Source of the DNA: an uncultured Verrucomicrobiota bacterium
GTDB lineage: Bacteria > Verrucomicrobiota > Verrucomicrobiia > Limisphaerales > UBA9464
DNA length: 63,518 nucleotides
Reading direction: 5' to 3'
Assembly (NCBI GenBank): GCA_903854475.1
Contig: CAINWP010000040.1
Span: 1-63,518, forward strand
Below the pieces are notes generated by a model. That model saw nothing but the letters and a program-made list of their open reading frames with translations, was not told where the DNA came from and made no database searches. A program made the translations under genes and the position numbers. Every line of letters starts with the position of its first letter. Within the stretch, counting starts at the first letter, position 1. Of this stretch, positions 22,636-63,518 are shown piece after piece.

Positions 22636-23013
22636 TCAGGTGAAGTGCTCCCAAAGTGTCGGACTAGGCGCTGGGGTGCCATAGCTCCGGCGCAATTGGT
22701 GAGATTGCTTAAGCATGACATTGGATTGCTGGCGTTCGGCTTCCAAAGCTACCACGGCCTGTTTGAACTCTGGGCCCATCGCCAACTCCTGTTCAAGAAC
22801 GGCTCTCAGGTGCCGTCGCTGATCGGGGGTCAAACAATGGTTGGGAGGCAGAAGCACTTCGAGATCCCGTTGACACCCAGATTTCCGATCCAAAATCGAC
22901 TCCACTTCGGTCCAATCCCGACGATGAACAGCTTCCTTTAAAAGTTCGTTGAGATCTTCCCAAGATCGCAGGGCGGTCTGGACTTGGTCAGTAGATTCCG
23001 GGACCGCGTCCAT
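22636..23013 (-). CDS. FliT/FlgN-like helical flagellar chaperone (putative)
   Basis: 'EAVHRRDWTEVESILDRK' pattern; directly coupled (TGATG) downstream of fliS. Confidence 0.5.
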   Translation of the reverse strand: MDAVPESTDQVQTALRSWEDLNELLKEAVHRRDWTEVESILDRKSGCQRDLEVLLPPNHCLTPDQRRHLRAVLEQELAMGPEFKQAVVALEAERQQSNVMLKQSHQLRRSYGTPAPSPTLWEHFT

Positions 23014-23486
23014 CAGACACTCATGTTGAAATTGACCCGCTCGGTACCCGTCGCGCTAGCGGGCCGTGTTCCAGGTGATTCGATGACGGAACCAGTGACT
23101 TGAGCGGCCAACATCTCGCGCCATGCTTCTTGGATCACCTTAAGATGTCGTTGAGCCTCCCTTAATGGCTCAGGTTCCTTACGGACATTGCCCTGGATCA
23201 AATGGTCTCCAATGTAGCCATACAAACCGAAGAGTTTACGCGCAAAATCACCACCAACCTCCAGATCCAATGCTACCCGCAACTGGTTCACGATCGCTGC
23301 TGCCTTGGTGATTTGGTTGTGGATCGTCTGCTGGCGTAAACCAAATTCTTCAATCTCAAACCCATCAATGGACCGCTGGATTGCCAGTACTGCTCCATCG
23401 AGCAGCATCTGAACAATACGATGCTTCGAGACGGTGGCCTCCGTGGCCGAACGGTAAGCCGCAAACGCATTACGGGCCTGTGACAT
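23013..23486 (-). CDS. fliS: Flagellin export chaperone FliS
   Basis: 'AYR...IVQMLLDGA', 'LDLEVGGDFARKLFGLYGY' and 'EAWREM'. Confidence 0.92.
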   Translation of the reverse strand: MSQARNAFAAYRSATEATVSKHRIVQMLLDGAVLAIQRSIDGFEIEEFGLRQQTIHNQITKAAAIVNQLRVALDLEVGGDFARKLFGLYGYIGDHLIQGNVRKEPEPLREAQRHLKVIQEAWREMLAAQVTGSVIESPGTRPASATGTERVNFNMSV

Positions 23487-23514: not shown

Positions 23515-23778
23515 CTAGGGTCCGCCGAACAAGGCCACTATACGGTCAACCCCATCTAACGGGGGATATGGACTGTCTGGGCTCGACTTACGAACCATTT
23601 CCTTCACCAACTTGAAATCGCTCTCGGCTCGTTCTTTTGCTTGGAGTATCTCCTCGCGGGTAATCTTTGGCGGTGGCCGCAAAGAGACCGACTCACCCGG
23701 CTCGGGCGGCCGGCCCGTCTTGACCTTGACCTCTGTAGGCAAGGTCGGTTCCTGAGTTTTAATCGCTTCTATTTTCAC
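23515..23778 (-). CDS. Putative anti-sigma-28 factor, FlgM-like
   Basis: 87 aa with low-complexity N-terminus, 'ESVSL' and C-terminal 'YPPLDGVDRIVALF'; GAGGAGG RBS before the GTG start and a sigma-28-type promoter upstream. Confidence 0.5.
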   Translation of the reverse strand: MKIEAIKTQEPTLPTEVKVKTGRPPEPGESVSLRPPPKITREEILQAKERAESDFKLVKEMVRKSSPDSPYPPLDGVDRIVALFGGP

Positions 23779-23798: not shown

Positions 23799-23826
23799 AT
23801 TGCGGCAGGATGAGCCTGCACTTAAG
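23799..23826 (-). promoter_or_regulatory. Sigma-28 (FliA)-type promoter of the flgM-like/fliS/fliT-like genes
   Basis: Minus strand cTTAAG-TGCAGGCTCATC-CTGCCGCAAT, i.e. TTAA-N15-GCCGCAAT versus consensus TAAA-N15-GCCGATAA; the same motif recurs at 55161-55186. Confidence 0.7.
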
Positions 23827-28434: not shown

Positions 28435-29235
28435 TTAGATGGGATTGACTCGCTTGATGTAGGCACTCAGGGCCGAGACGGCCTGCACATGAATTTGGCA
28501 GGCTCGGGCTTCGGTGAATCCGAGGATCTCTCCGATATCCTTCAATCGGAGACCCTCGTAATAGAACATGCTTAGAACCTTTTTCTGGACGTCGGGCAGC
28601 ACCTGGATTCGGTCCCGGATCAGTAGGTGCAATTCCCGCTGTACCAGCATTTCAAAGGGGCCCTGTTGATTCAGGTCCGCCAACTCCCGTGACGGTAGCT
28701 CATCGCTCGCCAAGAAGGCAGGTTCCGAGAGACTTTCAAAGATCACTCCGCGCAGCCGGTCGAGCAGTTGTCGATACTCCGGCATGCTAATACCCAGTCG
28801 CGAGGCGATTTGGTCCTCGGAGGGCGGCCCGCCCAGCTCAGTAGTTAGCGTATCGATGGTCTCTTCGAGCGCCTGACGCCGCGCCAAGTCGGAGCGGGAG
28901 AGCGGACTAATGCGGCGCAGTTCATCAAAGATCGCGTTTTTGATGCGGATGCGCGCAAAATGGGGAAAGGAAGCCCCTTTGAGCGGATCATAGGTTCTTC
29001 CGGCCTGCACCAAGGCGAAGAGTCCAAGATTAATCCAATCATCCAGGTCGGTGCCTGCTGGGAGCGCCGGGCAGTACCGTTGAACAGTTCTGACCACCAG
29101 AGGGGCGTATCGGCGCAGCAAATCCTCCTCACCATCCGCCGGCCCTACGGAGTCCCGGTAGCTGTGCAGAGCCCGAACCTTGTGAGTCAAGGAACTCAGT
29201 ACGGTCGGAGCTTCTGTGAACTCAGTGGCTGGCAT
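28435..29235 (-). CDS. fliA: RNA polymerase sigma-28 factor FliA
   Basis: 'YAPLV', 'YDPLKGASFPHFARIRIKNAIFDELR' and region 4 'YYEGLRLKDIGEILGFTEARACQIH'; start taken at ATG 29235. Confidence 0.92.
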   Translation of the reverse strand: MPATEFTEAPTVLSSLTHKVRALHSYRDSVGPADGEEDLLRRYAPLVVRTVQRYCPALPAGTDLDDWINLGLFALVQAGRTYDPLKGASFPHFARIRIKNAIFDELRRISPLSRSDLARRQALEETIDTLTTELGGPPSEDQIASRLGISMPEYRQLLDRLRGVIFESLSEPAFLASDELPSRELADLNQQGPFEMLVQRELHLLIRDRIQVLPDVQKKVLSMFYYEGLRLKDIGEILGFTEARACQIHVQAVSALSAYIKRVNPI

Positions 29236-38967: not shown

Positions 38968-38972
38968 CTCTC

Positions 38973-39728: not shown

Positions 39729-42337
39729 TTTCAAGCGACCTGAAGGCGCTGGAGTTAAGTCCTCGTGCCTCCCTGCCCTTTTCATGGAATTCCGACGGTG
39801 ATTCCGGGGTCGCAACCGGCGGGCAAAATGGGGTGACAGAATTCCAGCAACACCTGAAGTCGGCCCAATCTGCTCAGTCTTTGGAGACGAGTTCTTCATC
39901 GGTCGCCGTCGACCCGACGAGAGCGGAAACGGCCCCCTCCCCTGATCTTTCATCGAGAGTTTCACCCCAGATTCCTTCGACCCACCCACCGGCTCGGCCT
40001 TCGAGCAAACCCGTCCGCAAGGCGTCTTTCAATCTCCGAGCGATGGTCGACTCCAAGGTGCGATTTATTGGCCCGAGTACCGCACCTATTTCAACGGCAT
40101 TCGGAACCTCTTTGCTTCCATCGGCCCAATCCGGGATGTCCTCTTTGGCGGAGCCCTTGGGGCATGCTGAAGGATTCGAGTCGGAGTTGCGAAGGCCACC
40201 GGCCTTGAATTCTGGGAGCTCACCCCGGAATGAAGGTTTTCAAGGACTGCCAGAGCGCCCATTGATGGATTCTCGACGTTTACCCGATGCAGAGGTTGTC
40301 CTAGTGCGTAATGGGCGGGCTGATCCACAGGCAGTACCTAGTTCCAAGCAGATATCGGCCGATGTATTCTCAACCCCTTCTGACGCGGGTCAGACTTATG
40401 CGTCGAGGATGGTTCTCAAGAGACCCAACTACGCGTCCTCACCAGAATCGAATTTCGAGATGCAGACGGATTTTGCATCGGGTCTTGAGGAGTTGCCGGC
40501 TTCGGTTTCGACAAACCCGGGCGGCGGTGAATCGACTTCACCCCCCCAAACGATTGCAGCCATCGGGGCACGAGTAGGAGCGGTGCAAATACCGGCCAAC
40601 GGGCCACTGCGGGTCGTCGGAAAGACAGAGACATTTCAGTCGTTCCCTACTTCACAATCCGCCACCGTTTCCTATCCGTCGATGGGCAGCGATTCGATCG
40701 CGAGCGGGATCCGAGAAACTGCCCGTCGTGCCGTGGCCCAATCGCAAATCCTGGGCACACCACCGGCCTCAGTCACGTCAGTTCGTCCCGCCAACAACAA
40801 TCATGCTTTTCGCAGTCTAATCCTAGAACCTGGGACCGGAACCCTCCCGAGTTTTGCTACCGATTTGGCCCCTCTTTCCGGGGAGCTCTCGAGCGATAAC
40901 GCCTTGAGATCGGATTCTGTTACACCCCCGGCCTTCAGCCAGGCCTCCTTCCCACCGTCGTGGACTTCTGAACCCAATGGCGCTGAACTCTCTGTGAGCA
41001 ATTCTGGAGGGAAATCGGGCTTACTTACGGCAACCGGATCGAACCTCCAGCCCATCATTCCTGTCGAATCGGGCTCGCAAAACGGGGGGGGCATTCAGCG
41101 CGAGGCGCGCTCGTTGAACCCGAGTTCGGAGTTCATTAAGAACGCTCCTGCGAACCCTCCACTGGAGACTGTCCCCAATGGGGTTCCCAACCTAATACGG
41201 GTCCAGCGGAACATCGCGGCGGTCACTCCGACTCCTCCTATTTCCAAAGAAGTGTCCGGCACCGCGCAGGGTCTTTCAGAATTGGAGACTGGCCTTTCGG
41301 AAAACCAAGGCCTTGCGAATACTATTGGAGGGAAATCGGGCTTACTTACGGCAACCGGATCGAACCTCCAGCCCATCATTCCTGTCGAATCGGGCTCGCA
41401 AAACGGGGGGGGCATTCAGCGCGAGGCACGCTCGTCGAACCCGAGTTTGGAGTTGATTAAGAACGATTCGCCTGTTGAAGCGGTGGGCTTAACTGCGTCG
41501 AGCGAATCGAGTGTCGCCGAATCGCAGGCATCACCCAAGCCGTCGGTACAACCACTGCGACCGGCGAATCGATCACCACGCGCCAAGGGTGCTGATACAG
41601 TTGCATCGAACGCTTCCTCGCGAACTTCCCTCGAGGCGGATAACAGGTTTCCAACGCCCTTGGCTCTGGATAACGGCGCTGAAGATCGGATGCGGTTCGA
41701 TACCCTGGGCCGTGATGCGGGCTCCGGCTCCTCGTCAGATCCAGGTCATGGGCATTCTCAAGCGACTGGAACTCCCGCAACTGGACTGTTCCCCGGAGTT
41801 CCGCAGGGCTCATCGGTCCAAGATCCATTGGTTGATGGACCATCGAATTCACCCAAAACCTCTGACGCCGGCACTTCAGCCTCGCTCCTTCACGAATCTC
41901 ACAAATCGAGTGCGGTACGGCTGGTTCATCTGGATTCCCCAGGATCTGGCGGCTTGGAACTGCGTATTCAAGAACTTGGCGATAAGCTCATCGTTCGGAC
42001 ACAGGATCTTGTAGGTTCCCTCGACGGGCAAAGCACCCAATGGAAAGAGCTCCAGCAGCGTTTGGAGACCAGCGGGATTGTTCTCATGCCCGTGGATGCT
42101 TCATTGGGTGCAACGGCCGCACCGATCGAGCCTCGAAACTCATCCGAGGAATTGCGGCACACAATTTGCTACGACGGTAACATGGGTTCTACAGGGCGCG
42201 ATAGTTCGGATCCTCGCTCGTCGAGTGGTCGGGCACGCTCCTTAGGAGAACCTTCTCACTCGGCCTCTCCGGAGTTGCCCGATGAATCCATAGACTCTGC
42301 CGAGGCGCCGCCAGCCTCTCGGCAGTGGTGGGCCTGA
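39725..42337 (+). CDS. fliK: FliK-like hook-length control protein (870 aa)
   Basis: Ser/Pro-rich low-complexity body and degenerate T3S4-like C-terminus 'LDSPGSGGLELRIQE...LQQRLETSG'; immediately upstream of flgD. Confidence 0.65.
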   Translation: MISSDLKALELSPRASLPFSWNSDGDSGVATGGQNGVTEFQQHLKSAQSAQSLETSSSSVAVDPTRAETAPSPDLSSRVSPQIPSTHPPARPSSKPVRKASFNLRAMVDSKVRFIGPSTAPISTAFGTSLLPSAQSGMSSLAEPLGHAEGFESELRRPPALNSGSSPRNEGFQGLPERPLMDSRRLPDAEVVLVRNGRADPQAVPSSKQISADVFSTPSDAGQTYASRMVLKRPNYASSPESNFEMQTDFASGLEELPASVSTNPGGGESTSPPQTIAAIGARVGAVQIPANGPLRVVGKTETFQSFPTSQSATVSYPSMGSDSIASGIRETARRAVAQSQILGTPPASVTSVRPANNNHAFRSLILEPGTGTLPSFATDLAPLSGELSSDNALRSDSVTPPAFSQASFPPSWTSEPNGAELSVSNSGGKSGLLTATGSNLQPIIPVESGSQNGGGIQREARSLNPSSEFIKNAPANPPLETVPNGVPNLIRVQRNIAAVTPTPPISKEVSGTAQGLSELETGLSENQGLANTIGGKSGLLTATGSNLQPIIPVESGSQNGGGIQREARSSNPSLELIKNDSPVEAVGLTASSESSVAESQASPKPSVQPLRPANRSPRAKGADTVASNASSRTSLEADNRFPTPLALDNGAEDRMRFDTLGRDAGSGSSSDPGHGHSQATGTPATGLFPGVPQGSSVQDPLVDGPSNSPKTSDAGTSASLLHESHKSSAVRLVHLDSPGSGGLELRIQELGDKLIVRTQDLVGSLDGQSTQWKELQQRLETSGIVLMPVDASLGATAAPIEPRNSSEELRHTICYDGNMGSTGRDSSDPRSSSGRARSLGEPSHSASPELPDESIDSAEAPPASRQWWA
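41005..41465 (+). repeat. 140-bp in-frame direct repeat within fliK (41005-41144 and 41326-41465)
   Basis: Offset 321 bp (107 codons), 4 mismatches; both copies encode GGKSGLLTATGSNLQPIIPVESGSQNGGGIQREARS. Confidence 0.95.
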
Positions 42338-51301: not shown

Positions 51302-52309
51302 ATGAATCTCCATTCCTCTGATCGATCTGCGATTCCCCAGACAGGCCTGATGCTCTTCAAGGGCCACACGGCCGAAGAAGCCTTGGCCAAGGTGCATCAG
51401 AGTCTTGGATCCTCGGCCATCGTGGTGCAACTCAAGCGTGTCCCATCGGCCGGCGTCGGCAGGATTTGGGGAGCCATGGAGATTGAGGCGTGGGCTCAGG
51501 CCCCTGCCCCACTGACTCCAATCCCAGCGGCAGCGGATGCACCGGTTGCCAGGGTCCGTTCCGCGCCGAAAGAAGCCCGGACGATGGAGCTGCTCAGGAG
51601 TCTAGGTCTCAATGAGGAATCGGCCCGGAGGGTACACCAATCCATTCCTGTCTCGGGTGCGGCATTGACCAACCAAGAGGCCTGTCTTCAGCTCGGTGCT
51701 GCGCTGCTCGCTGCGTGGGACAAAGGCACCACGAGGATTCCAAAAACACCCCATCGGATTGCCCTGATCGGGGCGGCGGGCTCGGGCAAAAGCATTGCCA
51801 CAGCTAAGTGGATTACCATCGAATCCCTTCGCCATCGCCAGGATTGCCGGATCTGGTGCCTTGATGGAATCGTCGCCAATTCGGCGGAATTTTTATCACA
51901 GCACGCCGAACTGCTGGGGATTCCCGTGGAAACCACCTGGAACCCTGGGCTACCGCCGTGTTCTCGAGAATTTTTGGACCTACCCGGTTGGAATCCCACT
52001 GATCCCGATGTCTCCGATCGAATGGCCAACCTGCTTGACCGTTTTGAACCCGACTGCCTGCTACTGACACTCAATGCAGCGTATGAGGCGTCCATCCTTC
52101 AGAATCAGGTGGTGCAGTTCATGCCCTTCCGGCCGCATGGGTTGTTCCTCACGCATTTAGACGAGTGTCAGTCGCCATCCAAAGTCTGGGATCTGGTCCT
52201 CGCGAGCGGTATCGCTGTCTTTGGGACATCAAGCGGTCGATTCATCCCGGGCGGTTTCGACCGAACAGGAGGCGAGGCTTGGATGGAACGATTGTTTGAG
52301 CAGGTTTGA
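51302..52309 (+). CDS. flhF: FlhF-like SRP-family GTPase, divergent
   Basis: N-terminal 'AEEALAKVHQSLGSSAIVV', P-loop 'GAAGSGKS', 'DLPG' and 'THLDE'; follows flhA. Confidence 0.75.
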   Translation: MNLHSSDRSAIPQTGLMLFKGHTAEEALAKVHQSLGSSAIVVQLKRVPSAGVGRIWGAMEIEAWAQAPAPLTPIPAAADAPVARVRSAPKEARTMELLRSLGLNEESARRVHQSIPVSGAALTNQEACLQLGAALLAAWDKGTTRIPKTPHRIALIGAAGSGKSIATAKWITIESLRHRQDCRIWCLDGIVANSAEFLSQHAELLGIPVETTWNPGLPPCSREFLDLPGWNPTDPDVSDRMANLLDRFEPDCLLLTLNAAYEASILQNQVVQFMPFRPHGLFLTHLDECQSPSKVWDLVLASGIAVFGTSSGRFIPGGFDRTGGEAWMERLFEQV

Positions 52310-52320
52310 ACGGACCTCCT

Positions 52321-52352
52321 CTTGCCAGCGGGATTCCCCGCTCTCAAGCAAG
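52321..52352. terminator. Hairpin between convergent flhF and HDOD genes
   Basis: AGCGGG-ATTC-CCCGCT stem flanked by CTTGC/GCAAG; no clear U-tract. Confidence 0.3.
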
Positions 52353-52362
52353 TCGAAGACTC

Positions 52363-53631
52363 TCAGAAGAGCTTCGCGAGTTCCGCGGCCTTGCTAATGG
52401 AGTTGTTGCAAACGTCATCCAAAGCCTCCCGGGGCACCTGATATCGCTGTCCCACCTTATTGGCAAAGATCTCGTTCCATTCCTCGCCATGAGACGGGTG
52501 AAGAGAACTCACATAGTGGGCCGCATCAGGCCGTGTCTGGGCCACAGCATCGTTGTGATCTTTCATGCAAAGCATCACATCTTCCGGCAATTCCCAGTTC
52601 AATGCGATCAAGGCCCCGACTTCGGCATGATCCCATCCTAGGGTCTCATGCTCCAGCGTGTGGAGGTCCCGCTTTTCTTCGATCGCGGTCGAAAAAATCT
52701 TCATGTAGTCGTCCTTCTTACTGCTGACGATGAGCGGCACACTGAGGTCCTGAAGAAATCCTGCGGTGAAGGACAGATTGGCTTTGGACGGTTGGACGAT
52801 GTCGGCGAGTTCTCGAGCCAGCACCGCACGGCGTGAACTCGCTCGCCAAAAGTCGCCGAGCGCGAACTTGGCATGGGTCTGACTGGGCATCGCCGCCTTC
52901 GAACCGACAATCATGACGATGCGCTCTAAGTCCGCATTTCCCATGAGCATGATGGCGTGATCCAGGGACTGAACCTTGCTCTTCGGAGAGTAAGCGGTGG
53001 AGTTCACCGTGTTCATCACCTTGCCGACCAACTGGGCATCGATCGACATGACCTCCATGATTTTTCCGGGAGTCGTGTCGGGATCTCGGAGCCGGCGCAA
53101 GGTTTCGAAGACGGCCTTCCGGAATCGAGGAACCTCAACATCCCCGAGGAGTTGTCGGAGGCGATTCTGGATGTCGCTCTGTGACCATCCCGCATACGGA
53201 TTGATGATCGCCGGCGCAGTCGGAACGATGAGGCCGGACGCCGTGGTGACGGATCCTGGAACCGCCTTACCGCGGATCAAGGACGGTCGTGGCCGCTCGA
53301 TGACTTGAATGATCGGCCGGCGCGGCGCGACGACGGACCCTTTGCCCCGGCGTCCGCCCTTTCCGGCCGGCACCTTGGGCTTCGCAGCCGGTTTGGGCTG
53401 CGGTGGTGGAACGACCGGCTTTGCCCCTCCGTGCCCATGGGTTGCTTTCCAGATCGACAACGTCGGGTTGGACTCCGCGTTCTGGGCGGCCGCCTTTCGG
53501 CTTATTCCTCCTAAGGCGCTTTGAAGCCACGACCCCAGCGAACGAGCCAACCGAACGGTGCTTCCGGGTTTCTGATCCTGAGAAACCGACGAGGGTGCTG
53601 GTTTGTTGGAAGATCCTTCGCCCGGTTTCAT
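52363..53631 (-). CDS. HDOD-domain protein with disordered Pro/Lys/Arg-rich N-terminus
   Basis: 'DAQLVGKVMNTVNS', 'SLDHAIMLMG', 'FWRAS', 'GFLQDL' and 'LGWDHAEVGALIALNWELP'. Confidence 0.88.
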   Translation of the reverse strand: MKPGEGSSNKPAPSSVSQDQKPGSTVRLARSLGSWLQSALGGISRKAAAQNAESNPTLSIWKATHGHGGAKPVVPPPQPKPAAKPKVPAGKGGRRGKGSVVAPRRPIIQVIERPRPSLIRGKAVPGSVTTASGLIVPTAPAIINPYAGWSQSDIQNRLRQLLGDVEVPRFRKAVFETLRRLRDPDTTPGKIMEVMSIDAQLVGKVMNTVNSTAYSPKSKVQSLDHAIMLMGNADLERIVMIVGSKAAMPSQTHAKFALGDFWRASSRRAVLARELADIVQPSKANLSFTAGFLQDLSVPLIVSSKKDDYMKIFSTAIEEKRDLHTLEHETLGWDHAEVGALIALNWELPEDVMLCMKDHNDAVAQTRPDAAHYVSSLHPSHGEEWNEIFANKVGQRYQVPREALDDVCNNSISKAAELAKLF

Positions 53632-53639
53632 AAGATTTT

Positions 53640-55112
53640 CTATTCGCCGCGGCGGCCCAACTGGTTGCTGAAGATGGTGAGTAATCCACCCAGCCCTACA
53701 TAGCCCACCAGGGTCAGCAGGTTTACGACAAATTGGGCAGGCACGGTCTTAGGGAGGATATCTCCGAATCCGAGGGTCAGTGCCACGACGAAGGAAAAAT
53801 AAATAGTCTCATACCCACTGCGTTGGAAGTCCGACGGGACAAACAGTGCCGGAGTCACTACTCCGAGCGGGGTGGAACTTTGCCAACTCGATTCCTTGCC
53901 CTCGGCCGCCGCCAAATTAGAGGCCGCTAAAAGATTCCCCCCGTCCTGATCCTTCAGTTCCAGGGACGATTGAGTCGACCACAACGCCAACGTGTCGTCT
54001 TTGGGTAGATAGGCCGCGGTGATCGCCTGGTGGGTGGACTCATGAATCTTCTCACAAAGATGATTCAGAGAGTCTTTTTCAGGATCATAGTGAACCACTG
54101 TTCCATTGATGCTCAGCGCCCCCCCTTTGACGGGGGTTGCGAAGCCAGCAGATTTCATCGGAAGATCCGGATCCACCTTAGTGAGACTGTCCGGAAGCAG
54201 TGCGAAAACGACGGCAAAGGCACCGATCAACAGAAAATTGAGCACCACCCATCGGAACAGACTTCGTCCGCAATCGGAGGTGAGCCACCACAGCCAATAA
54301 ACCACCCGAGCCATCTTGCCCTGGTTGCGAAATTCCTCGAGGTAGTTCTCATCCACGATGTGGCGGCGCACTAAATACGCTCCAGTGAAGTCGATGTCCC
54401 GAATGTCCGAACCAATCCAATTGGAGGTCGTGTAGTTCTTCAACCCACGCAATTGGATTGCGTGCAAGTCCGCCTTGCCAAAGTCGGCCTGGCTGACATC
54501 GCATTCACGTAAGTCGCTTCCGGTCAGGTTTGCCTGGTTGAACTCAGTCTCAATTAATCGGCATTCCAAAAGGCGCGCATCTTGAATAGAGGCCAGATGG
54601 ACTCGTGCCTTAGCCCAAGTCGATTTTATAGCGCTGGCACCATCCAAGTTGGCACGGATCAAATTGGCGCCGTCGAAGATTGCTTCGCCAAAACCAGCCC
54701 CCTGCGCTGATGCTTCACTCAAATTGGCACCCCGGAAGGAGGATGCCATAAACTCTCCTCCATCGAGGCATGCCTGGAACAGCGTCGCCTCATCAAACTT
54801 GGCATGAGTCGCTACGACCCCCTTGAAGTTACAGCGACTCAGCTCACTGCCGGTAAAATCGCAACCGGACAGGTCCAGGCCGCTGAAATCTCGCCCCAGA
54901 AAATTCATCCCCGAGAGGCGTTGCAACTCGATCGGAAGAGCCTCTCCGCCCGTCTGCGCCTGACGGTAGCGGATTAGGATTTCATCTTCCCGACTCAACG
55001 TCTCGACGGCCACCGGGGTTTCCGTCTCCAGAGAATCCGGGGTGACAGCAGCCTCCGTCTCAAGAGAGATCGGGTTCTTTAATGGATCGTTTTCGGTCAA
55101 CTCGGTGGACAT
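53640..55112 (-). CDS. Pentapeptide-repeat protein fused to a 2-TM K+-channel-like pore domain with a FliD-like insertion
   Basis: A(N/D)Lxx-type repeats at aa ~65-245; TM1 at aa ~285-306; pore helix and filter 'YFSFVVALTLGFGDILP'; TM2 at aa ~460-482. Confidence 0.88.
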   Translation of the reverse strand: MSTELTENDPLKNPISLETEAAVTPDSLETETPVAVETLSREDEILIRYRQAQTGGEALPIELQRLSGMNFLGRDFSGLDLSGCDFTGSELSRCNFKGVVATHAKFDEATLFQACLDGGEFMASSFRGANLSEASAQGAGFGEAIFDGANLIRANLDGASAIKSTWAKARVHLASIQDARLLECRLIETEFNQANLTGSDLRECDVSQADFGKADLHAIQLRGLKNYTTSNWIGSDIRDIDFTGAYLVRRHIVDENYLEEFRNQGKMARVVYWLWWLTSDCGRSLFRWVVLNFLLIGAFAVVFALLPDSLTKVDPDLPMKSAGFATPVKGGALSINGTVVHYDPEKDSLNHLCEKIHESTHQAITAAYLPKDDTLALWSTQSSLELKDQDGGNLLAASNLAAAEGKESSWQSSTPLGVVTPALFVPSDFQRSGYETIYFSFVVALTLGFGDILPKTVPAQFVVNLLTLVGYVGLGGLLTIFSNQLGRRGE

Positions 55113-55158
55113 GAGATTGGTCTGGAGGAAACAGATCGGTAACAGTCCCCGGAGTAGG

Positions 55159-55186
55159 CATGCGGCAGAATCCCCACCTCCTTAAG
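55159..55186 (-). promoter_or_regulatory. Sigma-28 (FliA)-type promoter of the channel-HDOD operon
   Basis: Minus strand cTTAAG-GAGGTGGGGATT-CTGCCGCATG; boxes and spacing identical to 23801-23826. Confidence 0.7.
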
Positions 55187-55381
55187 TGTGGATTGCGATT
55201 TGATCGCCCTGCGGATGTCTGTAACTTCCTCCAGCGACCGGTCAGGCGCGGCGGTCTTCGTGTCGCAATGCCAAATCGAAGCGGTTGAAATCCGTCAGCG
55301 TTCCAATCCGTATCACTACCGACTTTTGTTCGTCCTTGTCGGATTTTGATGTCGAATTTTGAATCACCGATAGAGCTTCTA

Positions 55382-56011
55382 ATGACTACTGTTCTTCTTG
55401 CGGACGACCATGCGATTGTACGCCGAGGCTTCAGCATGATCCTCGCAGCTCAGCCTGATTTTCATATCGTCGCCGAGGTTTCTAACGGTCGCGAGGCGGT
55501 CGCGCAGGGAGAACAACTCCAACCGGCACTGTGCGTCATGGACGTGAGCATGCCCGACCTGAATGGCATCGAGGCAACACGGCGTCTGCTCAAGGTTTCC
55601 CCACGGACCCGAGTCATCGCCGTATCCATGCACAAAGACTCTGTTTATGTGCGGGAAATCCTTCGAGCAGGCGCTAAAGGATATGTGCTGAAAGACAGCA
55701 ATGAGTCGGAGTTTTTGAAGGCAGTCCGGGCTGTTTCGGCCGGCAAAGGCTACCTCAGCCCGGAGATCGCTGATGCAGTGCTCGACGATTACCGGAAGCA
55801 TGTTACCAATCCGATCGATCACCTGACGACTCGGGAGCGCGAGGTTCTTCAAATGATTGCCGAGAGCAAGACCAACAAGGAAATCGCGATGTCCTTGAAA
55901 CTCAGTGTCTATACGGTCGAATCCCATCGTGGACGCATCATGGAGAAGCTCAATATGCACAGCATCAGCGAGCTCGTCCGCTTCGCTTTCCGCAACGGTC
56001 TGATCGACTGA
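55382..56011 (+). CDS. NarL/LuxR-family response regulator
   Basis: 'VLLADDHAIVRRG', 'MDVSMP' and LuxR HTH 'LTTREREVLQMIAE...TVESHR'. Confidence 0.95.
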   Translation: MTTVLLADDHAIVRRGFSMILAAQPDFHIVAEVSNGREAVAQGEQLQPALCVMDVSMPDLNGIEATRRLLKVSPRTRVIAVSMHKDSVYVREILRAGAKGYVLKDSNESEFLKAVRAVSAGKGYLSPEIADAVLDDYRKHVTNPIDHLTTREREVLQMIAESKTNKEIAMSLKLSVYTVESHRGRIMEKLNMHSISELVRFAFRNGLID

Positions 56012-56017
56012 TCTGCC

Positions 56018-57337
56018 ATGCCCCGGTTCCTTTGGCTGAATGATCGGATCACCCAGCACACGGTGCTTCGAGGGTTGGTTCCCGGATTTGCCCTCGTGAT
56101 GGTGCTTCTCGGTGCTGCCGGTCTGGTCGCCGTCCGACAAAGCCGTCAAATTCGCCGAAGTGCTGCCGCAATTGTCAGCAATCAACTGACCGTGACCCGG
56201 CTGATCCAAGAGGCTCAGGCTGAAGAAGACACACTCGCAGTCACTCTATACCGACTCCGATCCGAGGAATCCTCCGACCGACGAATCCAGCGCCTGCAGG
56301 AATTGAAGGAGGCCGATCGCTCTCTGGCTCGATTGGCTGAGGAGGCCTCACGAACTCCGGACGCGCTCCGGTGGAAAGATCTAGCGATCGAGACCCAATT
56401 GTTCTCCCGGGAAGCCGAACAAGCCCTTCGAAAAGGCATCTTGGTTTCGGATCAGGCCATGGCTCCCTTGTTTGCCAGGCATCAGCGCGTGTTAGCACTC
56501 ATTCGCGAACTCATCCAAACCAGCAACCAGCGTCTCATCCGCGAGGAACGGGAGTTAAACCTACAAATCCAGGAAATGGCGGATGGATCCACCTGGCTAT
56601 TGGGAAGCTCCTTCATCTTAGCGGCCGCCTGCGCGATAGGAACCATCCTGTATGTTCGATGGAGCATCCGACGAATGGAACAGCACACCGATCAGTTGAA
56701 CCGTGTTTCTTGGCACATGCTTCAAACCCAAGAGGAAGCGGCTCGTCGCTTTTCTCACGAATTGCATGATGAGTTGGGTCAATCCCTGGCCGCGATTCGA
56801 GCCAATCTCACTTTTCGCTCAGACAGTGATACCGAACAGCGTCGCTTCGACTGCGTGGCATTGGTGGACGAGGCGATTGCCAACGTGCGGGAACTCTCCC
56901 AACTGTTACGACCGGTCATGCTCGATGATTTCGGCTTGGAGGCGGGTCTCCGCTGGTTGGTGGAGAAATTCGGGCAACGCACCCGAATCCAAGTCCACTT
57001 CAAGTCCTCCTTGGAAACACGTTTGAACGGTGACATCGAAACCCATTTATTCCGTATCACCCAAGAGTCCCTAACCAACGTTGCACGGCACTCCTCCGCG
57101 ACCGAGGTATCCATCTGTCTCAGTGCTAAAGACGGCCAAGTCTCCTTGGTGATCGAGGACAACGGTATCGGCATTGCCAACGAAGATTCCAGACCGATGA
57201 GCAGTCTGGGATTGGTCGGCATGACCGCACGGGCACAGCAATGCGGTGGGTGGGTTCGGTTGGAACCCTCTGCCCCATCCGGCTTGCGGGTGGTGGTGCA
57301 AGTGCCACTCGTCGCTTTGGACCCACCCGCTGGATGA
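56018..57337 (+). CDS. Membrane sensor histidine kinase, HisKA_3 (NarX/UhpB type)
   Basis: Two TMs, 'HELHDELGQSL', 'QESLTNVARHS', 'EDNGIG' and 'GLVGM'. Confidence 0.95.
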   Translation: MPRFLWLNDRITQHTVLRGLVPGFALVMVLLGAAGLVAVRQSRQIRRSAAAIVSNQLTVTRLIQEAQAEEDTLAVTLYRLRSEESSDRRIQRLQELKEADRSLARLAEEASRTPDALRWKDLAIETQLFSREAEQALRKGILVSDQAMAPLFARHQRVLALIRELIQTSNQRLIREERELNLQIQEMADGSTWLLGSSFILAAACAIGTILYVRWSIRRMEQHTDQLNRVSWHMLQTQEEAARRFSHELHDELGQSLAAIRANLTFRSDSDTEQRRFDCVALVDEAIANVRELSQLLRPVMLDDFGLEAGLRWLVEKFGQRTRIQVHFKSSLETRLNGDIETHLFRITQESLTNVARHSSATEVSICLSAKDGQVSLVIEDNGIGIANEDSRPMSSLGLVGMTARAQQCGGWVRLEPSAPSGLRVVVQVPLVALDPPAG

Positions 57338-57467
57338 GGCCTACGGCCCAAACCATCAACGCTTTTTCATTCGGGCCAGCAGGACCTGGATTCTGGGATA
57401 AGGTATCCAGTTGGGCTTCTTGGTGTCGGAATTTCGGCGCCGAGCCGCCGGCCCGCACCGTTACCGA

Positions 57468-58973
57468 CTAGGGCTTCGGCCGGCCGGGGGCCTTGATCGT
57501 CGCCTTCGGAAGGGTCGACGAGTAGTCTCTCGAATCGGGCACCCCCCCACCGAGGGCCTTGTAAGCCTTCACCGCTGCCATGAGTTGAGTTTGTTTCATC
57601 TCGACGAGCTCTACCCGGGACTCGAGGGCTTCTCTTTGGGTGAGGAGCACCTCGGTGTAGTCGGCGCGCGCGGAGTTGAAGAGTTGAGAAGACATCGTAG
57701 CTGCCTCGGAAAGAGCTTCCACTTGCCGGGACTTCAATTCATATCCCTGCCCCACGTTGCGGACCTGGGAGAGCGCATTGACCACCTCGACGTAAGCCTT
57801 GAGCACTGTTTGCTGGTACCGGTAAACGGCAGCCACCTGGCGCGCTGACGCGCCTTTGAACGCTGCCTTGATGGCGCTGCGGTTGATGAGTGGACCGACC
57901 AAATTGGCAGTCGCGCCGTAGGCCATGTTCTCCTTTGCCAATATGGGAGAACCTAGAGTGAACGACTCGATGCCCAGGACCGCGGAGACGTTGAGCGCTG
58001 GATAGAATCGGGCCGCAGCAACCTTCACTTCCAACCCGGCCGCTTTGAGTTCCAGCTCCGCCTGTCGCACATCGGGTCTGTGCCGCAGCAGTTCCGAGGG
58101 GACACCGGCCTGCAGCGGGCTCAGCATCCGAATTTCAAAGCCGTCGGGACTGCGTTCTATGGGCTGGGGATAACGTCCGGTTAGCACGTTCAACCGGTTC
58201 TCGTTCTCAATGATTTGCTGTTGAATTGCGAAGAGCTTGCTCCGGTTCTTGGAAACCTCCGCCTCGAAACGGCGCACCGCCAACTCCGTCACACGGGCAG
58301 CGGACTTTTTGATCCGGACCGATTCAAGTGCCTTCTCCTGCATCTCCAGCATCCGTCGATAAATGGCCAACTGGCCATCCAGAGACAGCAGATCGTAGTA
58401 GGTTTCGGAAATCTCAGCGACGAGGTGAGTCACCATGAAATTCCGCCCCTCCTGCGTGGCGAGGTAGCGCTGGATAGCGGCATCGCGCTCGTTGCGCAGC
58501 TTCCTCCAGATGTCGACCTCCCAGTCCAGATCTGCCGCAACACCGTAGTTCGGCAACGGATCGGGAAACCTCTTTCCAGGTTGAATCTCGAGATTCTCTT
58601 CGACTGCCCCGTTGCGCGAGTTGACCGAAACTTTGTCGACCCCCGCGGTGCCCCCAAGCCGGACGAAGGGCAATAGCGCCCCCCTCCGCGCATCCGTCTC
58701 GGCCTTCGCTACGGCAACCTCCTGCATCAGGATGTTGAGTTCCTGATTGTTGGTCAACGCGGTGGAGATTAGAGAGATCAGCGCCGGATCTTGAAAATAT
58801 TCACGCCATCCAATGACCACAGCATTAGTGGCAGCCTCGGTGCCCGGAAAGCGATCCGGCAACGGGGCGACGGCAGAGGGCAGTGGGCCCGGCTTGGGGG
58901 CCACGCAACCCGGTGCGACCGCGAGGACCGCGGCGGCGACGAGAGTCCGGGTGAGCGTATAAGCGGATTTCAT
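57468..58973 (-). CDS. RND efflux outer-membrane lipoprotein (NodT/OprM/TolC family)
   Basis: Lipobox 'APGC', 'WEVDIWRKLR', 'PSELLRHRPDVRQAE' and 'YKALGGG'. Confidence 0.95.
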   Translation of the reverse strand: MKSAYTLTRTLVAAAVLAVAPGCVAPKPGPLPSAVAPLPDRFPGTEAATNAVVIGWREYFQDPALISLISTALTNNQELNILMQEVAVAKAETDARRGALLPFVRLGGTAGVDKVSVNSRNGAVEENLEIQPGKRFPDPLPNYGVAADLDWEVDIWRKLRNERDAAIQRYLATQEGRNFMVTHLVAEISETYYDLLSLDGQLAIYRRMLEMQEKALESVRIKKSAARVTELAVRRFEAEVSKNRSKLFAIQQQIIENENRLNVLTGRYPQPIERSPDGFEIRMLSPLQAGVPSELLRHRPDVRQAELELKAAGLEVKVAAARFYPALNVSAVLGIESFTLGSPILAKENMAYGATANLVGPLINRSAIKAAFKGASARQVAAVYRYQQTVLKAYVEVVNALSQVRNVGQGYELKSRQVEALSEAATMSSQLFNSARADYTEVLLTQREALESRVELVEMKQTQLMAAVKAYKALGGGVPDSRDYSSTLPKATIKAPGRPKP

Positions 58974-58981
58974 GGGCCGAT

Positions 58982-61900
58982 TTATTCCTTTTCGTGCTCT
59001 TCGCTGAGAGGCAATTGATCCTCGTCGGGCAACAGCTTGGAGCGCTGCGAGAGGCTGGCGAAGATGTAGTAGAGCCCCGGGATCACTATCGCTCCCATCA
59101 CCGTACCGAGGAGCATTCCACCTGCGGCGGAAGCTCCGATCGTGCGACTGGCGATGGCCCCTGCCCCGGTGGCGCGGAGCAGCGGGATCATGCCTGCGAT
59201 GAAGGCGAAAGAGGTCATCAAGATCGGACGAAACCGAGCCTTCGCCCCCTCGATCGCGGCATCGAAAATCGACATGCCTTGGAGTTGCTTTTGGGTGGCG
59301 AATTCCACGATGAGGATCGCGTTCTTGCCCAGCAATCCAACCAACATGATGAGTCCCACCTGAGCATAAATGTCATTGTCCAATCCCATCCACTTCAGCA
59401 GGAAGAACGAGCCCATGACACCGACCGGCAAAGAAAGGATCACTGCCAGCGGCAACAGGAAACTCTCATACTGCCCGACGAGCACGAGATAGACGAACAT
59501 CAGCACGACGATGAAGATGTAAATGGCTTCATTGCCGCGGCGCGCTTCATCGAAGGAGAGGCCTGCCCAAGCAATGTCGAAGCCGCGCGGAAGGGTCTTG
59601 GCTGCCACTTCCTGAATGGCCTTGATGGCGTCGCCCGAGCTGAATCCATCGGCGGGAGCACCCTGAATAGTGGGCGCCGGATAGGCATTGTAACGAGTGA
59701 TCTCGTTGAGTCCCAACTTGGGCTTCATCGTGACGAACGCCGAGTACGGGACCATATCCCCCTTGTCGTTAGCGACGTAGAGGTCGTTGAGATCCTTGGG
59801 AAGCCGTCGAAACTTAGGATCAGCTTGGATGTAGAGCTTGAAGAATTGACCAAACTTGATGAATCCCTGCTCGTAGGTGCTACCAATGAGGATTGAGAGA
59901 TTGTCCATGGCCTTGCCAATGGAGACGCCCTTTTGCATCGCGGTTTGGTTGTCGATGACCAACTCGATTTGCGGGTAGTTGGCGCTGAAGAACGTGAAGA
60001 GGCCCCGCAATTCTTTGCGCTTGGCCAATGCCTCCATGAACTCGCCGTTGACGACCTGAAGACGGTCGTAGTCACCCGTCGCGGTCTTGTCTAGAAGGCG
60101 GAGCGAGAAGCCGCCGGCGGCCCCATATCCAGGCACGGCGGGAGGTTCATAGAACTCGATCAGCACGCCCGGAATTGCCCGACAACGGCGTTCCAGCTCC
60201 GCGATGATCTGTGCCGCGGTCAGTTTGCGCTTCGACCAATTCTTAAGGTTGATGAGGCAGGTGCCGGCATTCGATCCGCGTCCCTCGGTCAATACCTCAT
60301 ATCCCGCGAGCGATGAGACCGACTCAACACCTTCGATCTGCCGAGCAATTTGCTGCAGTTCGGTGGACTTAGCGGAGGTACGCTCCAGCGTGGAACCGGG
60401 CGGCGTCTGAAGGATCGCGTAAATCATGCCTTGGTCCTCGGCCGGGATGAAGCCGGCGGGGATGCGCTCTCCCACCTGTTGGATCGCCACCATGGAGAGG
60501 ACGATGATAAGCAGGGTTACGAACCTGCGGTTTACGATACGCTTGAGTAGGCCAATATAGGAGTTGGTAAACTTATCAAAAAAGCGGTTAAACAGGGCGA
60601 GTAGCCAACCGATGGGACCCTTTGGCGCAGCATGCGCGTTGGGCGTTTTGAGGATCATCCCGCACAAGACTGGGGTTAGGGTCAACGCCATGACGCCCGA
60701 GAGCACGATGGAAACGGCCATGGTGATGGAAAACTCACGGTAGAACACCCCCACCGGACCGCTCATAAACGTCACTGGGACGAACACGGCCGTCATAACC
60801 AGAGTAATGGCGATCACCGCGCCGCCGATTTCATGCATCACCAGTTGTGTCGCCTTGTAGGGAGACAAACCGGTGTCATGCATCTTCGCGTGCACCGCTT
60901 CGACCACGACGATGGCGTTGTCGACGACGATACCGATGGCCATCACCAGAGCGAAGAGCGTGATGAGGTTAATGGTGATGCCCATCATCTTCATCAGGAA
61001 GAAGGTTCCGATGAGGGAGACCGGGATCGCGAGCGTCGGGATGAGTGTCGACCGGACGTCGCCCAGGAAGACGAAAACTACCAGCGCAACGAGGATGAAC
61101 GCCTCAATGAGGGTGTGGAGAACCTTCTCGAAGGATGCATCGAGGAAGGTCGAGACATCGTAGCTAATCTTGTAATCCATTCCTGACGGGAAGGATTTTG
61201 CTTTGAACTCGGCGAGCTTGGCCTTGACCTGACGGATGACGTCGTTGGCGTTACTGCCATAGCTCTGCTTGATCACGATCGCGGCGGAGGGACTGCCGTC
61301 GAGGTCTGAGTAAAGATCATAGAATTCGCTACCTAATTCAACGGTCGCAACGTCCTTCAGCCTCAGAAGTTCCCCCTTGTCCGTGGCCCGCAGGATGATG
61401 TTTTCATACTGTTCCACCTCGTTGAAACGGCCCACATAAGTCAGCACGTATTCGAGCGATTGCGAGGTCTTGCTGTCGGCGCGTCCGAGACGTCCGGGGG
61501 ATCCGATCACGCTCTGTTCGGCCAGGGATTTCATCACCTCTTCGGTGGCTATCTTGTAGGCACGCATCCGGTCCGGATTGAGCCAAACGCGCATGGCGTA
61601 CTGACGGGTGCCGAGGATCTTTGCCGAGCCGACGCCCGTAATTCGACTCAACTCGGGGATGAGGTTGACGTACCCGTAGTTGAAGAGGAACTGCATGTCC
61701 GCGTTCTTGTCTGTCGAATACAAGTTCACATACATCAGCATGTTCGGGCTGAGATTGTTCACGATCACGCCTTCGCGCTGAACCAGTGGCGGCAGACGGC
61801 TCATGACCTGATTCACACGGTTCATGACGTTCACCGTGGCCTGGTTGGGGTCGGTGCCCATGTTGAACACGACCTGAATCGTGGCCTCTCCCGCGCTGGT

Positions 61901-62146
61901 CGCGTCGGAAGTCATGTACTTCATGTTCGGAACACCGTTGATGGAGCGTTCCAGCGGGATGAGGCAGGACTCCTCGAGCACCTTGGCGCTCGCCCCCGGG
62001 TAGTCGAGGGTGACCATCACCACCACCGGAGCAACGTCCGGAAACTGGGAGATCGGCATGGTTGCGATCGACAACCCTCCCAGGAACAGAATCAGCAGAG
62101 AGATGACGATGGCCAGCGCGGGCCGGCGGAGAATTTGGGTAAACAT
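58982..62146 (-). CDS. RND efflux permease (HAE1/AcrB family)
   Basis: 'GIVVDNAIVVVE', 'KNAILIVEFA' and 'RFRPILMTS'; 1054 aa. Confidence 0.96.
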   Translation of the reverse strand: MFTQILRRPALAIVISLLILFLGGLSIATMPISQFPDVAPVVVMVTLDYPGASAKVLEESCLIPLERSINGVPNMKYMTSDATSAGEATIQVVFNMGTDPNQATVNVMNRVNQVMSRLPPLVQREGVIVNNLSPNMLMYVNLYSTDKNADMQFLFNYGYVNLIPELSRITGVGSAKILGTRQYAMRVWLNPDRMRAYKIATEEVMKSLAEQSVIGSPGRLGRADSKTSQSLEYVLTYVGRFNEVEQYENIILRATDKGELLRLKDVATVELGSEFYDLYSDLDGSPSAAIVIKQSYGSNANDVIRQVKAKLAEFKAKSFPSGMDYKISYDVSTFLDASFEKVLHTLIEAFILVALVVFVFLGDVRSTLIPTLAIPVSLIGTFFLMKMMGITINLITLFALVMAIGIVVDNAIVVVEAVHAKMHDTGLSPYKATQLVMHEIGGAVIAITLVMTAVFVPVTFMSGPVGVFYREFSITMAVSIVLSGVMALTLTPVLCGMILKTPNAHAAPKGPIGWLLALFNRFFDKFTNSYIGLLKRIVNRRFVTLLIIVLSMVAIQQVGERIPAGFIPAEDQGMIYAILQTPPGSTLERTSAKSTELQQIARQIEGVESVSSLAGYEVLTEGRGSNAGTCLINLKNWSKRKLTAAQIIAELERRCRAIPGVLIEFYEPPAVPGYGAAGGFSLRLLDKTATGDYDRLQVVNGEFMEALAKRKELRGLFTFFSANYPQIELVIDNQTAMQKGVSIGKAMDNLSILIGSTYEQGFIKFGQFFKLYIQADPKFRRLPKDLNDLYVANDKGDMVPYSAFVTMKPKLGLNEITRYNAYPAPTIQGAPADGFSSGDAIKAIQEVAAKTLPRGFDIAWAGLSFDEARRGNEAIYIFIVVLMFVYLVLVGQYESFLLPLAVILSLPVGVMGSFFLLKWMGLDNDIYAQVGLIMLVGLLGKNAILIVEFATQKQLQGMSIFDAAIEGAKARFRPILMTSFAFIAGMIPLLRATGAGAIASRTIGASAAGGMLLGTVMGAIVIPGLYYIFASLSQRSKLLPDEDQLPLSEEHEKE

Positions 62147-62163
62147 GGTGGGATACCTAGGGG

Positions 62164-63282
62164 CTATTCCGCACGGAGCTTCAAATTCTTGAAGGCCGCT
62201 TCTGGCTCGAGGAATTCAAACTCAGCCTTCTCTCCCGGTTTTGCCTGTCGAATTCCTTCAACCACGATCCGGTCCTTGTCGGTCACCCCGCTGCTCACGA
62301 GGAACACGTCTTCAATCTCCTCGCTAATGTGGATCCGTTGCTGACTCACAACGTCGTCCTTTCCAACCACCAGGACATAGTGGTGGTCGAGCACCTCGAA
62401 AGTGGCCTTCTGCGGCACCAGAACTGCGTCCTTTACCAACTTCCGCATTCGAATGGTGCCGGTTTCGCCATGGCGAAGCAGCTGGTTTGGATTCGGGAAA
62501 TCCGCGCGGAACGGAATTGTGCCGGTTTCGTTGTTAAACTCCGCCTCGATGGCATTAATACGGCCGGGATGCGGGAAGACCTTCCGGTTGGCCATGACCA
62601 GCTCCACGATCTTGCGGTCCTCCGGTTGGGCCTGGGAGGCGTACTCGAGATAATCCGATTCGGGCACATTGAAGTAGACCCAAACCTCGCTGTTGTCGGA
62701 GAGCGTGGTGAGCAAATCCCCCTCGTCCACCAGACTTCCGTTCCGCAAATGGAGTCGATCGACAAGTCCTGGGAACGGCGCCCGGATGTCAGTGAATCCG
62801 AGGTGTGCCTGAGCCAGATTCACGTGAGCTTTTTCTTTCTCCAGTTTGGCCCAAGCGATCGCTAACTCGGTCTCCGAGACAATCTTAGTGTCGGCCAATC
62901 GTTTGGTGTTGTCGTACTCCACCTTCGCAACCTGAGCCTCTGCCTCCGCCCGCCTCAGTTCTGCTTGATACACCAATGGCAGAATCTTGAACATGGCATC
63001 CCCCTGTTTGACCGTCTGACCCTCGGTGACCGCCACGCTTTCCAAATAACCCCGTTCCAAGGCCCGGATTTCGATATTACGGGACGAACGGATCTGACAA
63101 ACGAAGTCGCGGGACACCACCGTGTCCTTCCGCATGGGACGCGAGACCACGAGTTTCGCCTTTTCCTCCTCCTTCTCATGCTCGTGGCCCTCCTGAGGTT
63201 TATGGCATCCGCCCAGCAAAAAGGCGGTTGCAACGCCTCCGCACAAAAACGTTATCCAACCGCCAGATCCTCGCAGTTTCAT
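62164..63282 (-). CDS. RND efflux periplasmic adaptor (MFP), lipoprotein
   Basis: Lipobox 'LGGC', 'VTEGQTVKQG', 'IRAPFPG' and 'TGTIPFRADFPNP'. Confidence 0.94.
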   Translation of the reverse strand: MKLRGSGGWITFLCGGVATAFLLGGCHKPQEGHEHEKEEEKAKLVVSRPMRKDTVVSRDFVCQIRSSRNIEIRALERGYLESVAVTEGQTVKQGDAMFKILPLVYQAELRRAEAEAQVAKVEYDNTKRLADTKIVSETELAIAWAKLEKEKAHVNLAQAHLGFTDIRAPFPGLVDRLHLRNGSLVDEGDLLTTLSDNSEVWVYFNVPESDYLEYASQAQPEDRKIVELVMANRKVFPHPGRINAIEAEFNNETGTIPFRADFPNPNQLLRHGETGTIRMRKLVKDAVLVPQKATFEVLDHHYVLVVGKDDVVSQQRIHISEEIEDVFLVSSGVTDKDRIVVEGIRQAKPGEKAEFEFLEPEAAFKNLKLRAE

Positions 63283-63395
63283 CCTGCCAACAGTCTGGCA
63301 AGGTCAACCGCTACTCCGGTATCCCCTCCTCAAGGAGTATTGGCAACCGTGCATGGGGGCTACCACACCCTGAGCCTCGCCTGAGAACCTCCGAG

Positions 63396-63475
63396 GTACG
63401 GCGATTTCTCCGAAAGCGCCGCGTCCACAGACACGGACCGCCGCAGGGGCGGACCGCTCGGAGATCGGTCCCTAC
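63396..63475. repeat. REP-like unit, inverted copy of the element at the window start
   Basis: GTAC+GGCGATTTCTCCGAAAGCGCC at 63396-63420 and GGACCGCTCGGAGATCGGTCC+CTAC at 63451-63475; these are reverse complements of 221-245 (one mismatch) and 84-108. Confidence 0.85.
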
Positions 63476-63518
63476 CTAGGAACAGCATCGGAACGTCGGC
63501 AGAGTCGGATGATCGGAC

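Follow-up and report, generated by a model that had tools for sequence, protein, structure and literature searches.

A conserved two-box element before two operons of an accessory flagellar island: a probable variant sigma-28-type promoter in an uncultured Verrucomicrobiota bacterium

Two operons of an accessory flagellar island in the genome of an uncultured Verrucomicrobiota bacterium are preceded by the same two-box element, CTTAAG-N12-CTGCCGCA, which to judge from its sequence is almost certainly a promoter and which is most likely read by the island's own FliA/WhiG-type sigma paralogue (28435-29235), with a probability that we put at about two in three. Both copies lie on the minus strand of the window, i.e. 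the whole stretch of 63,518 nucleotides that was analysed. Site B (55161..55186; full sequence CTTAAGGAGGTGGGGATTCTGCCGCA), with its -35-like box at 55186-55181 and its -10-like box at 55168-55161, stands before an operon for a channel and an HDOD protein, and site A (23801..23826; full sequence CTTAAGTGCAGGCTCATCCTGCCGCA) before an operon made up of an 87-aa ORF, fliS and a 125-aa ORF. A previous sequence-only reading had described two copies with identical boxes, the same spacing and differing spacers, both intergenic and oriented 22-48 nt before a start codon, and this description was confirmed when the sites were re-read: the boxes are identical at 14/14 positions, the spacer is 12 nt long in both and matches at only 3/12 positions, both sites are intergenic with ORFs of the same strand on either side, and the distance from the end of the motif to the start codon is 48 nt for site B (ATG at 55112) and 22 nt for site A (GTG at 23778).

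The draft genome that was searched (labelled G000; 4,444,094 bases in 340 contigs, 97% complete; its contigs are given below as C9, C57, C61 etc. and other genomes by other G-numbers) contains the exact motif twice, at sites A and B only. As CTTAAG occurs 286 times in the genome and CTGCCGCA 271 times, 0.0174 pairs of this kind would be expected, with P(>=2)=1.5e-4. Shuffling of the window (n=100, up to two mismatches allowed), which is a weaker test, gave a mean of 0.30 matches, and one shuffle in 100 reached two. Beyond the boxes no extended similarity was found among the sites. The repeat is real and far beyond chance, and chance is ruled out because the motif is kept in 10 other genomes.

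Site A was present in 11 of 11 genomes carrying the island, with CTTAAG, the 12-nt spacer and CTG(C/T)CGCA kept (a single C-to-T in one genome) and with an entirely different spacer in the two genomes that are most divergent (67-69% DNA identity). Site B was found as CTTAAG-N12-CTG(C/A)CGCA in all 10 island genomes with readable DNA upstream of the channel gene, so shared there by the channel-HDOD and fliS operons, and the DNA further upstream is unrelated in four of the 10. A scan of 24 genomes of the genus with CTTAAG-N12-CTGNCGCA returned 27 matches, every one of them in an island genome (two to four in each of the 11), against zero in the remaining 13; its reversed control had four matches in the 24 genomes, and the relaxed core CTTAAG-N14-GNCGCA returned 47 matches in the island genomes versus three in the others, with 31 versus 53 for its reversed control. 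The motif was matched in 16 of 200 further genomes of the order, once in 15 of them and twice in one. Across 37 sites, which were gathered by a regular expression that required the core, all 12 core positions (CTTAAG and G-N-CGCA) are invariant, every spacer column varies, and the position after the first G of the -10 box is free (C 19, A 17, T 1). The upstream region of the channel homologue in G212 was the sole one examined that had no core, and the two distant channel orthologues that were read (approximately 43% identity, from other families of the order) are preceded by unrelated DNA in which the motif is missing. In G212, a genome without the island, the 68% channel homologue lies at C158:1759-3165 and a relaxed match at 375-400, approximately 1.4 kb downstream on the same strand; the two may be a remnant of the island.

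The element was compared with the sigma-28 consensus of E. coli, TAAAGTTT-n11-GCCGATAA (PMC2859248), and with the fliC promoter of P. aeruginosa, which has TCTAAAG at -36..-30 and GCCGATAA at -15..-8 (PMC12784957). The G of the -35 box and the G of the extended -10 are 14 nt apart in 37/37 sites (the 12-nt spacer plus 2), which is the same distance as in canonical TAAAG-N14-GCCGATAA, and the register matches exactly. The element and the canonical promoters further have in common the AAG of the -35 box and the G-CG of the -10 box. With the final G as the anchor of the alignment, CTTAAG agrees with TAAAG at four of five positions, the T for A being invariant in 37/37 sites; of the canonical -10 GCCGATAA the G, C and G are kept, the second position is free and CA stands in place of AT in 37/37 sites. 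Strict register places a C at -11 and the A one base later, and the missing -11 A would mean either that the register shifts by one or that the pocket reads differently. The architecture of a sigma-28 promoter, which the sequence-only reading had proposed, is seen in the two-box layout with its exact register; the -10 core that is kept reads GNCGCA and differs from GCCGAT. Like class-3 sigma-28 promoters, the element precedes a flagellar chaperone operon and has a FliA-family sigma encoded nearby; unlike canonical sigma-28 promoters, it is absent before flagellin and hook-associated genes.

A promoter closer to the canonical form occurs in the same genome. The first of the primary flagellin genes on C61 has the promoter TCAGG-N14-TCCGATGA, which was recovered in 9/9 genomes with and without the island, and because this promoter is of the canonical type the genome holds two classes of sigma-28-type promoters. 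The primary FliA regulon could not be delimited by regular expression scans of the genome, as the matches to the primary-type motif and to canonical TAAA-N15-GCCGATAA contained too much noise, and the absence of the primary motif from the island therefore cannot be claimed. Among the papers listed by a literature search, judged by title and the beginning of the abstract, there was none on FliA promoters in Verrucomicrobia.

With the register given in PMC12784957, we infer a transcription start for site B at about 55151. For site A a start at about 23791 is predicted, which would leave a 13-nt leader with GAGGAGG. A conserved block, ATCAAAYCGCAAT(C/A)C, lies just upstream of site B in the 10-genome alignment (55190..55204, minus strand) and could act as an UP-like element or as a site for an activator; a stretch AATCRCA..C before site A loosely resembles it. 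A further conserved block, TGCCTACTCCGGGGAC (55145..55160, minus strand), comes right after the -10-like box of site B and spans the predicted start and the early leader. No family match around site B was obtained in an Rfam search of 54900-55450 (E<=1), and a scan for sigma-70-like promoters found none on the gene strand at site A or B. Logan contigs from four metatranscriptome runs (90% likeness) cover 52300-54962, only coding parts, and no contig from an RNA library lies over 55004-55211; such contigs can neither show starts nor prove expression. Small shares of the window were detected in 24 metatranscriptome runs, with a maximum of 0.14 of the sampled words.

The flagellar island was delimited with Pfam and NCBIfam models to 22636-55186, the genes to the left of 22636 being housekeeping genes. 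From left to right it contains the 125-aa ORF, fliS, the 87-aa ORF, an ORF for a 252-aa lipoprotein-like protein and fliD, followed by motB, motA, the FliA/WhiG-like sigma gene, a weakly IS256-like ORF and a Sel1-trypsin protein gene, then by fliF-G-H-I, flgD, a rod/hook protein gene, fliL-M-N-O-P-R, flhB, flhA and flhF, and at its end by the HDOD and channel genes, which are convergent with the preceding genes. Among the island ORFs no flgC, fliE, flgF/G, flgH/I or flgK/L was recognised. The FliS chaperone of this accessory system is encoded at 23013..23486 (minus strand; Pfam FliS, E 7.3e-26), and the 125-aa ORF (22636..23013, minus strand), which is the last gene of operon A and forms the left end of the island, has a faint match to FliT (E 0.63). 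Ten of the 23 further genomes in the genus have FliS of the window type (80-91% identical), and all 23 have another type of FliS; channel orthologues (85-95% identical) were found in the same 10 genomes, apart from the 68% homologue in G212. Because FliS and the channel are co-distributed, the accessory island is taken to be carried by 11 of the 24 genomes. G000 has two FlhA (C9 and window), two FliS (C57 and window) and two FliA-like sigma factors, the canonical one on C214 (246 bits, over the cut-off of 189.6) in the row flhF-fliA-motA and the other in the window. To the right of site B, at 55346-63282 and hence between sites B and D (the latter described below), lie genes for a LuxR-type response regulator, a histidine kinase and an RND efflux trio (OEP, AcrB, HlyD); this block is also present in G208 and absent from that place in G216, and it looks like an insertion into the island.

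The first gene of the operon behind site B (53640..55112, minus strand) encodes a 490-aa protein that according to Pfam and NCBIfam has pentapeptide repeats in its N-terminal part and, towards the C-terminus, a two-TM pore of the K-channel type (Ion_trans_2). It is followed after a gap of 8 nt by the gene for the 422-aa HDOD protein (52363..53631, minus strand; Pfam HDOD, E 3.1e-38). The channel had been described as FliD-capped; no FliD domain was found in it with Pfam, and the best BLASTP match to the island FliD had an E-value of 9.1. The first gene of operon A, the proline-rich 87-aa ORF with a GTG start (23515..23778, minus strand), had been called flgM-like, a name that the searches did not support: the ORF had no Pfam match even at E<=10, FlgM included, the PF04316 profile found nothing in the genome at E<=1, and a profile built from 14 homologues, run against the PDB at E<=10, brought up no FlgM chain. 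Only close, unnamed homologues (70-93% identity) were retrieved for it. The language-model Atlas gave leads only, one to the cluster of the type-III-secreted regulator ExsE (0.91) and one to a cluster with 24% FlgM carriers (0.81).

Two further sites were found in G000, one of them (site C; C300:3890-3915; CTTAAG-N12-CGGACGCA) before a gene for a 355-aa actin-like protein (locus L106; C300:2769-3836, minus strand; Pfam MreB_Mbl, 1.5e-17). The best PDB matches of this protein were the "Actin-like ATPase" chains 5jyg/5ljv/5ljw (E 1e-73), which we take to be MamK. It is 97-99% identical across nine island genomes, the start of the gene falling at a contig end in the tenth (G220), and has no close copy in island-less genomes, four of which contain 35% paralogues. 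The core and the 12-nt spacing of site C are kept in 10 of 10 upstream regions. Downstream of the actin-like gene, C300 carries a 466-aa ORF without known family and then a weak LysM ORF. Site D (C218:18890-18915; CTTAAG-N12-TCGACGCA) stands before a gene for a secreted Sel1-repeat protein and was read in seven genomes, and a fifth site, confined to G220 and G223, precedes the gene for a secreted protein of no fewer than 483 aa. The sites lie 22-84 nt upstream of start codons. A position weight matrix (PWM), trained on the same sites that it recovers, gave 27.8-29.1 bits for the four sites of G000 and 19.6 bits for the runner-up (C94:3815), which lies at the end of a likely coding region; the genome scan also gave a one-mismatch match at C207:89763. 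The regulon of G000 is thus predicted to comprise four operons, i.e. the 87-aa ORF-fliS-125-aa ORF operon, the channel-HDOD operon, the actin-like gene and the Sel1 gene. As had been suggested, the motif could be used to find further members of the regulon (sites C and D), but the flagellin was not among the genes it precedes.

The genome has five flagellins and two FlgK/FlgL-like genes, and the motif, which had been predicted to occur before fliC and flgK, was found before none of them (0/5 and 0/2, at no more than one mismatch or a PWM score of at least 12 bits). Site D lies approximately 55 nt from a fliW-csrA-flagellin operon (471-aa flagellin; C218:16657-18880, minus strand) and points away from it. 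The contig C134 of G208 is collinear with 53868-63482 of the window and then with C218 in reverse, and on C23 of G216 the order flagellin-csrA-fliW, site D-Sel1, site B-channel-HDOD is contiguous, without the equivalent of 55346-63282. Because of the gene order in these two genomes, C218 is placed next to the right end of the window and its flagellin is regarded as that of the island. Upstream of this flagellin operon stands TGGCAT-N5-CTGCT, kept in six further genomes, which by consensus we take to be sigma-54-like. An rpoN gene is present in the genome (C36), and the island flagellin appears to be sigma-54-driven.

The accessory sigma factor (28435..29235, minus strand; 266 aa) is FliA/WhiG-like: TIGR02479 was its best-scoring family at 170.7-171.7 bits, under the cut-off of 189.6, and the Sigma70 regions r2, r3 and r4 are all present (Pfam). 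The longest ORF at this place extends over 28435-29409 (324 aa), the orthologues have 265-266 aa, and the true start of the gene is probably the ATG at 29235. The best PDB matches were 6pfv ("RNA polymerase sigma factor") and FliA chains; we presume 6pfv and 6pfj to be the WhiG-RsiG complex. A 375-aa ORF with weak similarity to IS256/Mutator transposases (56 bits, cut-off 150) lies directly upstream of the sigma gene (29476-30603, minus strand). Relatives beyond its own lineage form a tier of 37-44% identity that includes Verrucomicrobia MAGs, and the named relatives beyond that tier are FliA/WhiG of spirochaetes (32-34% identity).

For FliA of P. aeruginosa PMC12784957 gives contacts of R80 to -12G, D87 to -13C, R97 to the extended -10 and Q228 and S224 to the -35 element, and a stacking of Y76 on the flipped -11A. 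These residues were mapped by a HMMER alignment to chain 9wsm_F, with an inferred offset of 5 from the numbering of that paper. The island sigma keeps the equivalents of R80, D87, R97 and Q228; Y76 is replaced by F and S224 by A. When 24 FliA-type sequences were aligned, F and A occurred together in 8/8 island-type rows and Y and S in the 16/16 others, which include the canonical FliA of G000, the 40% tier from other Verrucomicrobia and FliA/WhiG of spirochaetes. The island-type rows are 70-97% identical and form a starred clade. The positions at which the two promoter classes diverge would correspond to those at which the island sigma is changed, a correlation from one clade, which amounts to one evolutionary event.

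Six loci with relatives of the 40% tier in Verrucomicrobia MAGs were inspected, and the motif was found in none. Only one of the six has a similar order, namely L185 (9947-16810, in a record titled Akkermansia muciniphila), with sigma-motA...fliD-homologue of the 252-aa protein-small ORF-fliS-homologue of the 125-aa protein; the small ORF is homologous to the 87-aa ORF and lies in the equivalent place of this distant MAG. Its sigma keeps Y and S, and the locus is without the CTTAAG motif. A canonical-type cGAAG-N14-TCCGACAA stands before the small ORF, a single unconserved observation that can serve only as a hint.

Under the preferred reading CTTAAG-N12-CTGCCGCA would be the strong form of a conserved promoter with the core CTTAAG-N14-GNCGCA. 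The CTTAAG box would replace the sigma-28 -35 element TAAAG and be read by sigma region 4.2, GNCG would replace GCCG of the extended -10/-10 and be read by the conserved Arg/Asp of region 2-3, and CA would stand at -11/-10 where canonical promoters have AT. The transcript would begin about 10 nt past the last A, and the promoter would serve a small regulon of four operons from which the island flagellin operon is excluded. We infer in this way the identity of the sigma factor, the start sites and the 'late' timing. Counting against this reading are the C at -11 in strict register in place of the canonical A, the flagellin, the archetypal sigma-28 target, which is without the motif, and the score of the sigma below the FliA_WhiG cut-off.

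The element might instead be a sigma-28-type promoter that is read by the canonical FliA (C214), alone or together with the island sigma, in which case the late genes of the island would be slaved to the primary hierarchy. Co-occurrence cannot separate the two sigma factors, because the targets travel with the island and the canonical FliA is present in every genome; the canonical FliA of G000 scores 246 bits, over the cut-off, and the features contacted by canonical sigma-28, namely AAG in the -35 box, the spacing and G-CG, are all retained in the motif. This explanation is nevertheless judged unlikely, given that the primary flagellin promoter of nine genomes has CCGATGA and not CGCA, that CA for AT is invariant in 37/37 sites, and that the island has a sigma of its own with clade-specific changes at two DNA-contact positions.

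Quite unlikely, too, is that the boxes are the site of a transcription factor (e.g. the LuxR-type regulator beside site B) or belong to another class of sigma (e.g. ECF). CTTAAG is palindromic, a response regulator and histidine kinase pair is divergent from site B (55346-57337), and the extra conserved block upstream of site B would also suit this explanation, but G216 keeps the motif without the regulator-kinase-efflux block, neither box repeats the other in direct or inverted orientation, and the fixed 14-nt register at 22-84 nt before start codons fits a promoter. In addition, the Pfam scan of island ORFs brought up no ECF sigma, and no GG-N10-GC was present. A chance resemblance or the remnant of a repeat or mobile element, for which the mere two exact copies and the one shuffle in 100 with two loose matches could be cited, is hardly credible in view of the genome-wide expectation given above, the retention across 11 genomes despite diverged spacers and flanks, and the lack of extended similarity among the sites outside the boxes.

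A more far-reaching version of the preferred reading, in which the island sigma is the reader, would be that one cell contains two sigma-28 paralogues whose promoter specificities are insulated from each other, the island sigma being retuned and serving a private late regulon while the filament protein is placed under sigma-54. The replacement of Y by F in the -11 pocket and of S by A in region 4.2 would have retuned the island sigma to take CTTAAG-N14-GNCGCA and not the canonical ...AAG/AGG-N14-(G/T)CCGAT, and the regulon would couple an extra flagellar apparatus to the K-channel/HDOD pair, to a MamK-like actin filament that is almost invariant, and to Sel1 proteins. As a joint claim this is tentative, and we consider it possible, somewhat short of probable.

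Sigma-28 promoters and dual flagellar systems with two FliA are known kinds, and the present case is a variant of both. Dual flagellar systems with a second sigma-28 (LafS/FliAL) occur in Vibrio parahaemolyticus, Aeromonas and Plesiomonas (e.g. PMC11242183 and PMC4481668). As in these systems, one genome contains two sets of flagellar genes and a separate FliA-type sigma for each of them; unlike in these systems, the host is a member of the Verrucomicrobiota, the second set is present in only 11 of the 24 genomes of the genus and the island flagellin appears to be sigma-54-driven. The predicted regulon also differs in having non-flagellar-looking genes (channel, HDOD, actin-like, Sel1), a comparison that leaves aside the LafS promoters. 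WhiG of Streptomyces is a sigma of the sigma-28 family that controls non-flagellar genes (PMC12871210), and like WhiG the island sigma belongs to this family and has a predicted regulon that extends beyond flagellar parts; unlike Streptomyces WhiG, it is encoded inside a flagellar cluster, beside motA/motB.

The element provides a sharply defined and testable promoter for an uncultured lineage of the Verrucomicrobiota (12 invariant positions in 37 sites, with almost no background) and allows a putative regulon to be defined without expression data, by which a K-channel, an HDOD protein, a MamK-like actin and a Sel1 protein would be tied to an accessory flagellar system. It may also represent a natural case of divergence of sigma-28 paralogues in the reading of the -35 and -10 elements, in which the candidate specificity residues could be swapped. 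The motif further led to the flagellin that had been "missing", beside site D on C218.

Additional observations were made on both flagellar systems. In the island, two ORFs of 296 and 870 aa without family lie between fliI and flgD (38838-42337, plus strand), and the 296-aa ORF has a faint match to the spirochaete collar protein FlbB (E 1e-3). In the primary system, long and highly conserved GGA-rich leaders are found upstream of both primary flagellin genes on C61 (locus L135), and the GGA motifs in these leaders are presumably candidate CsrA sites.
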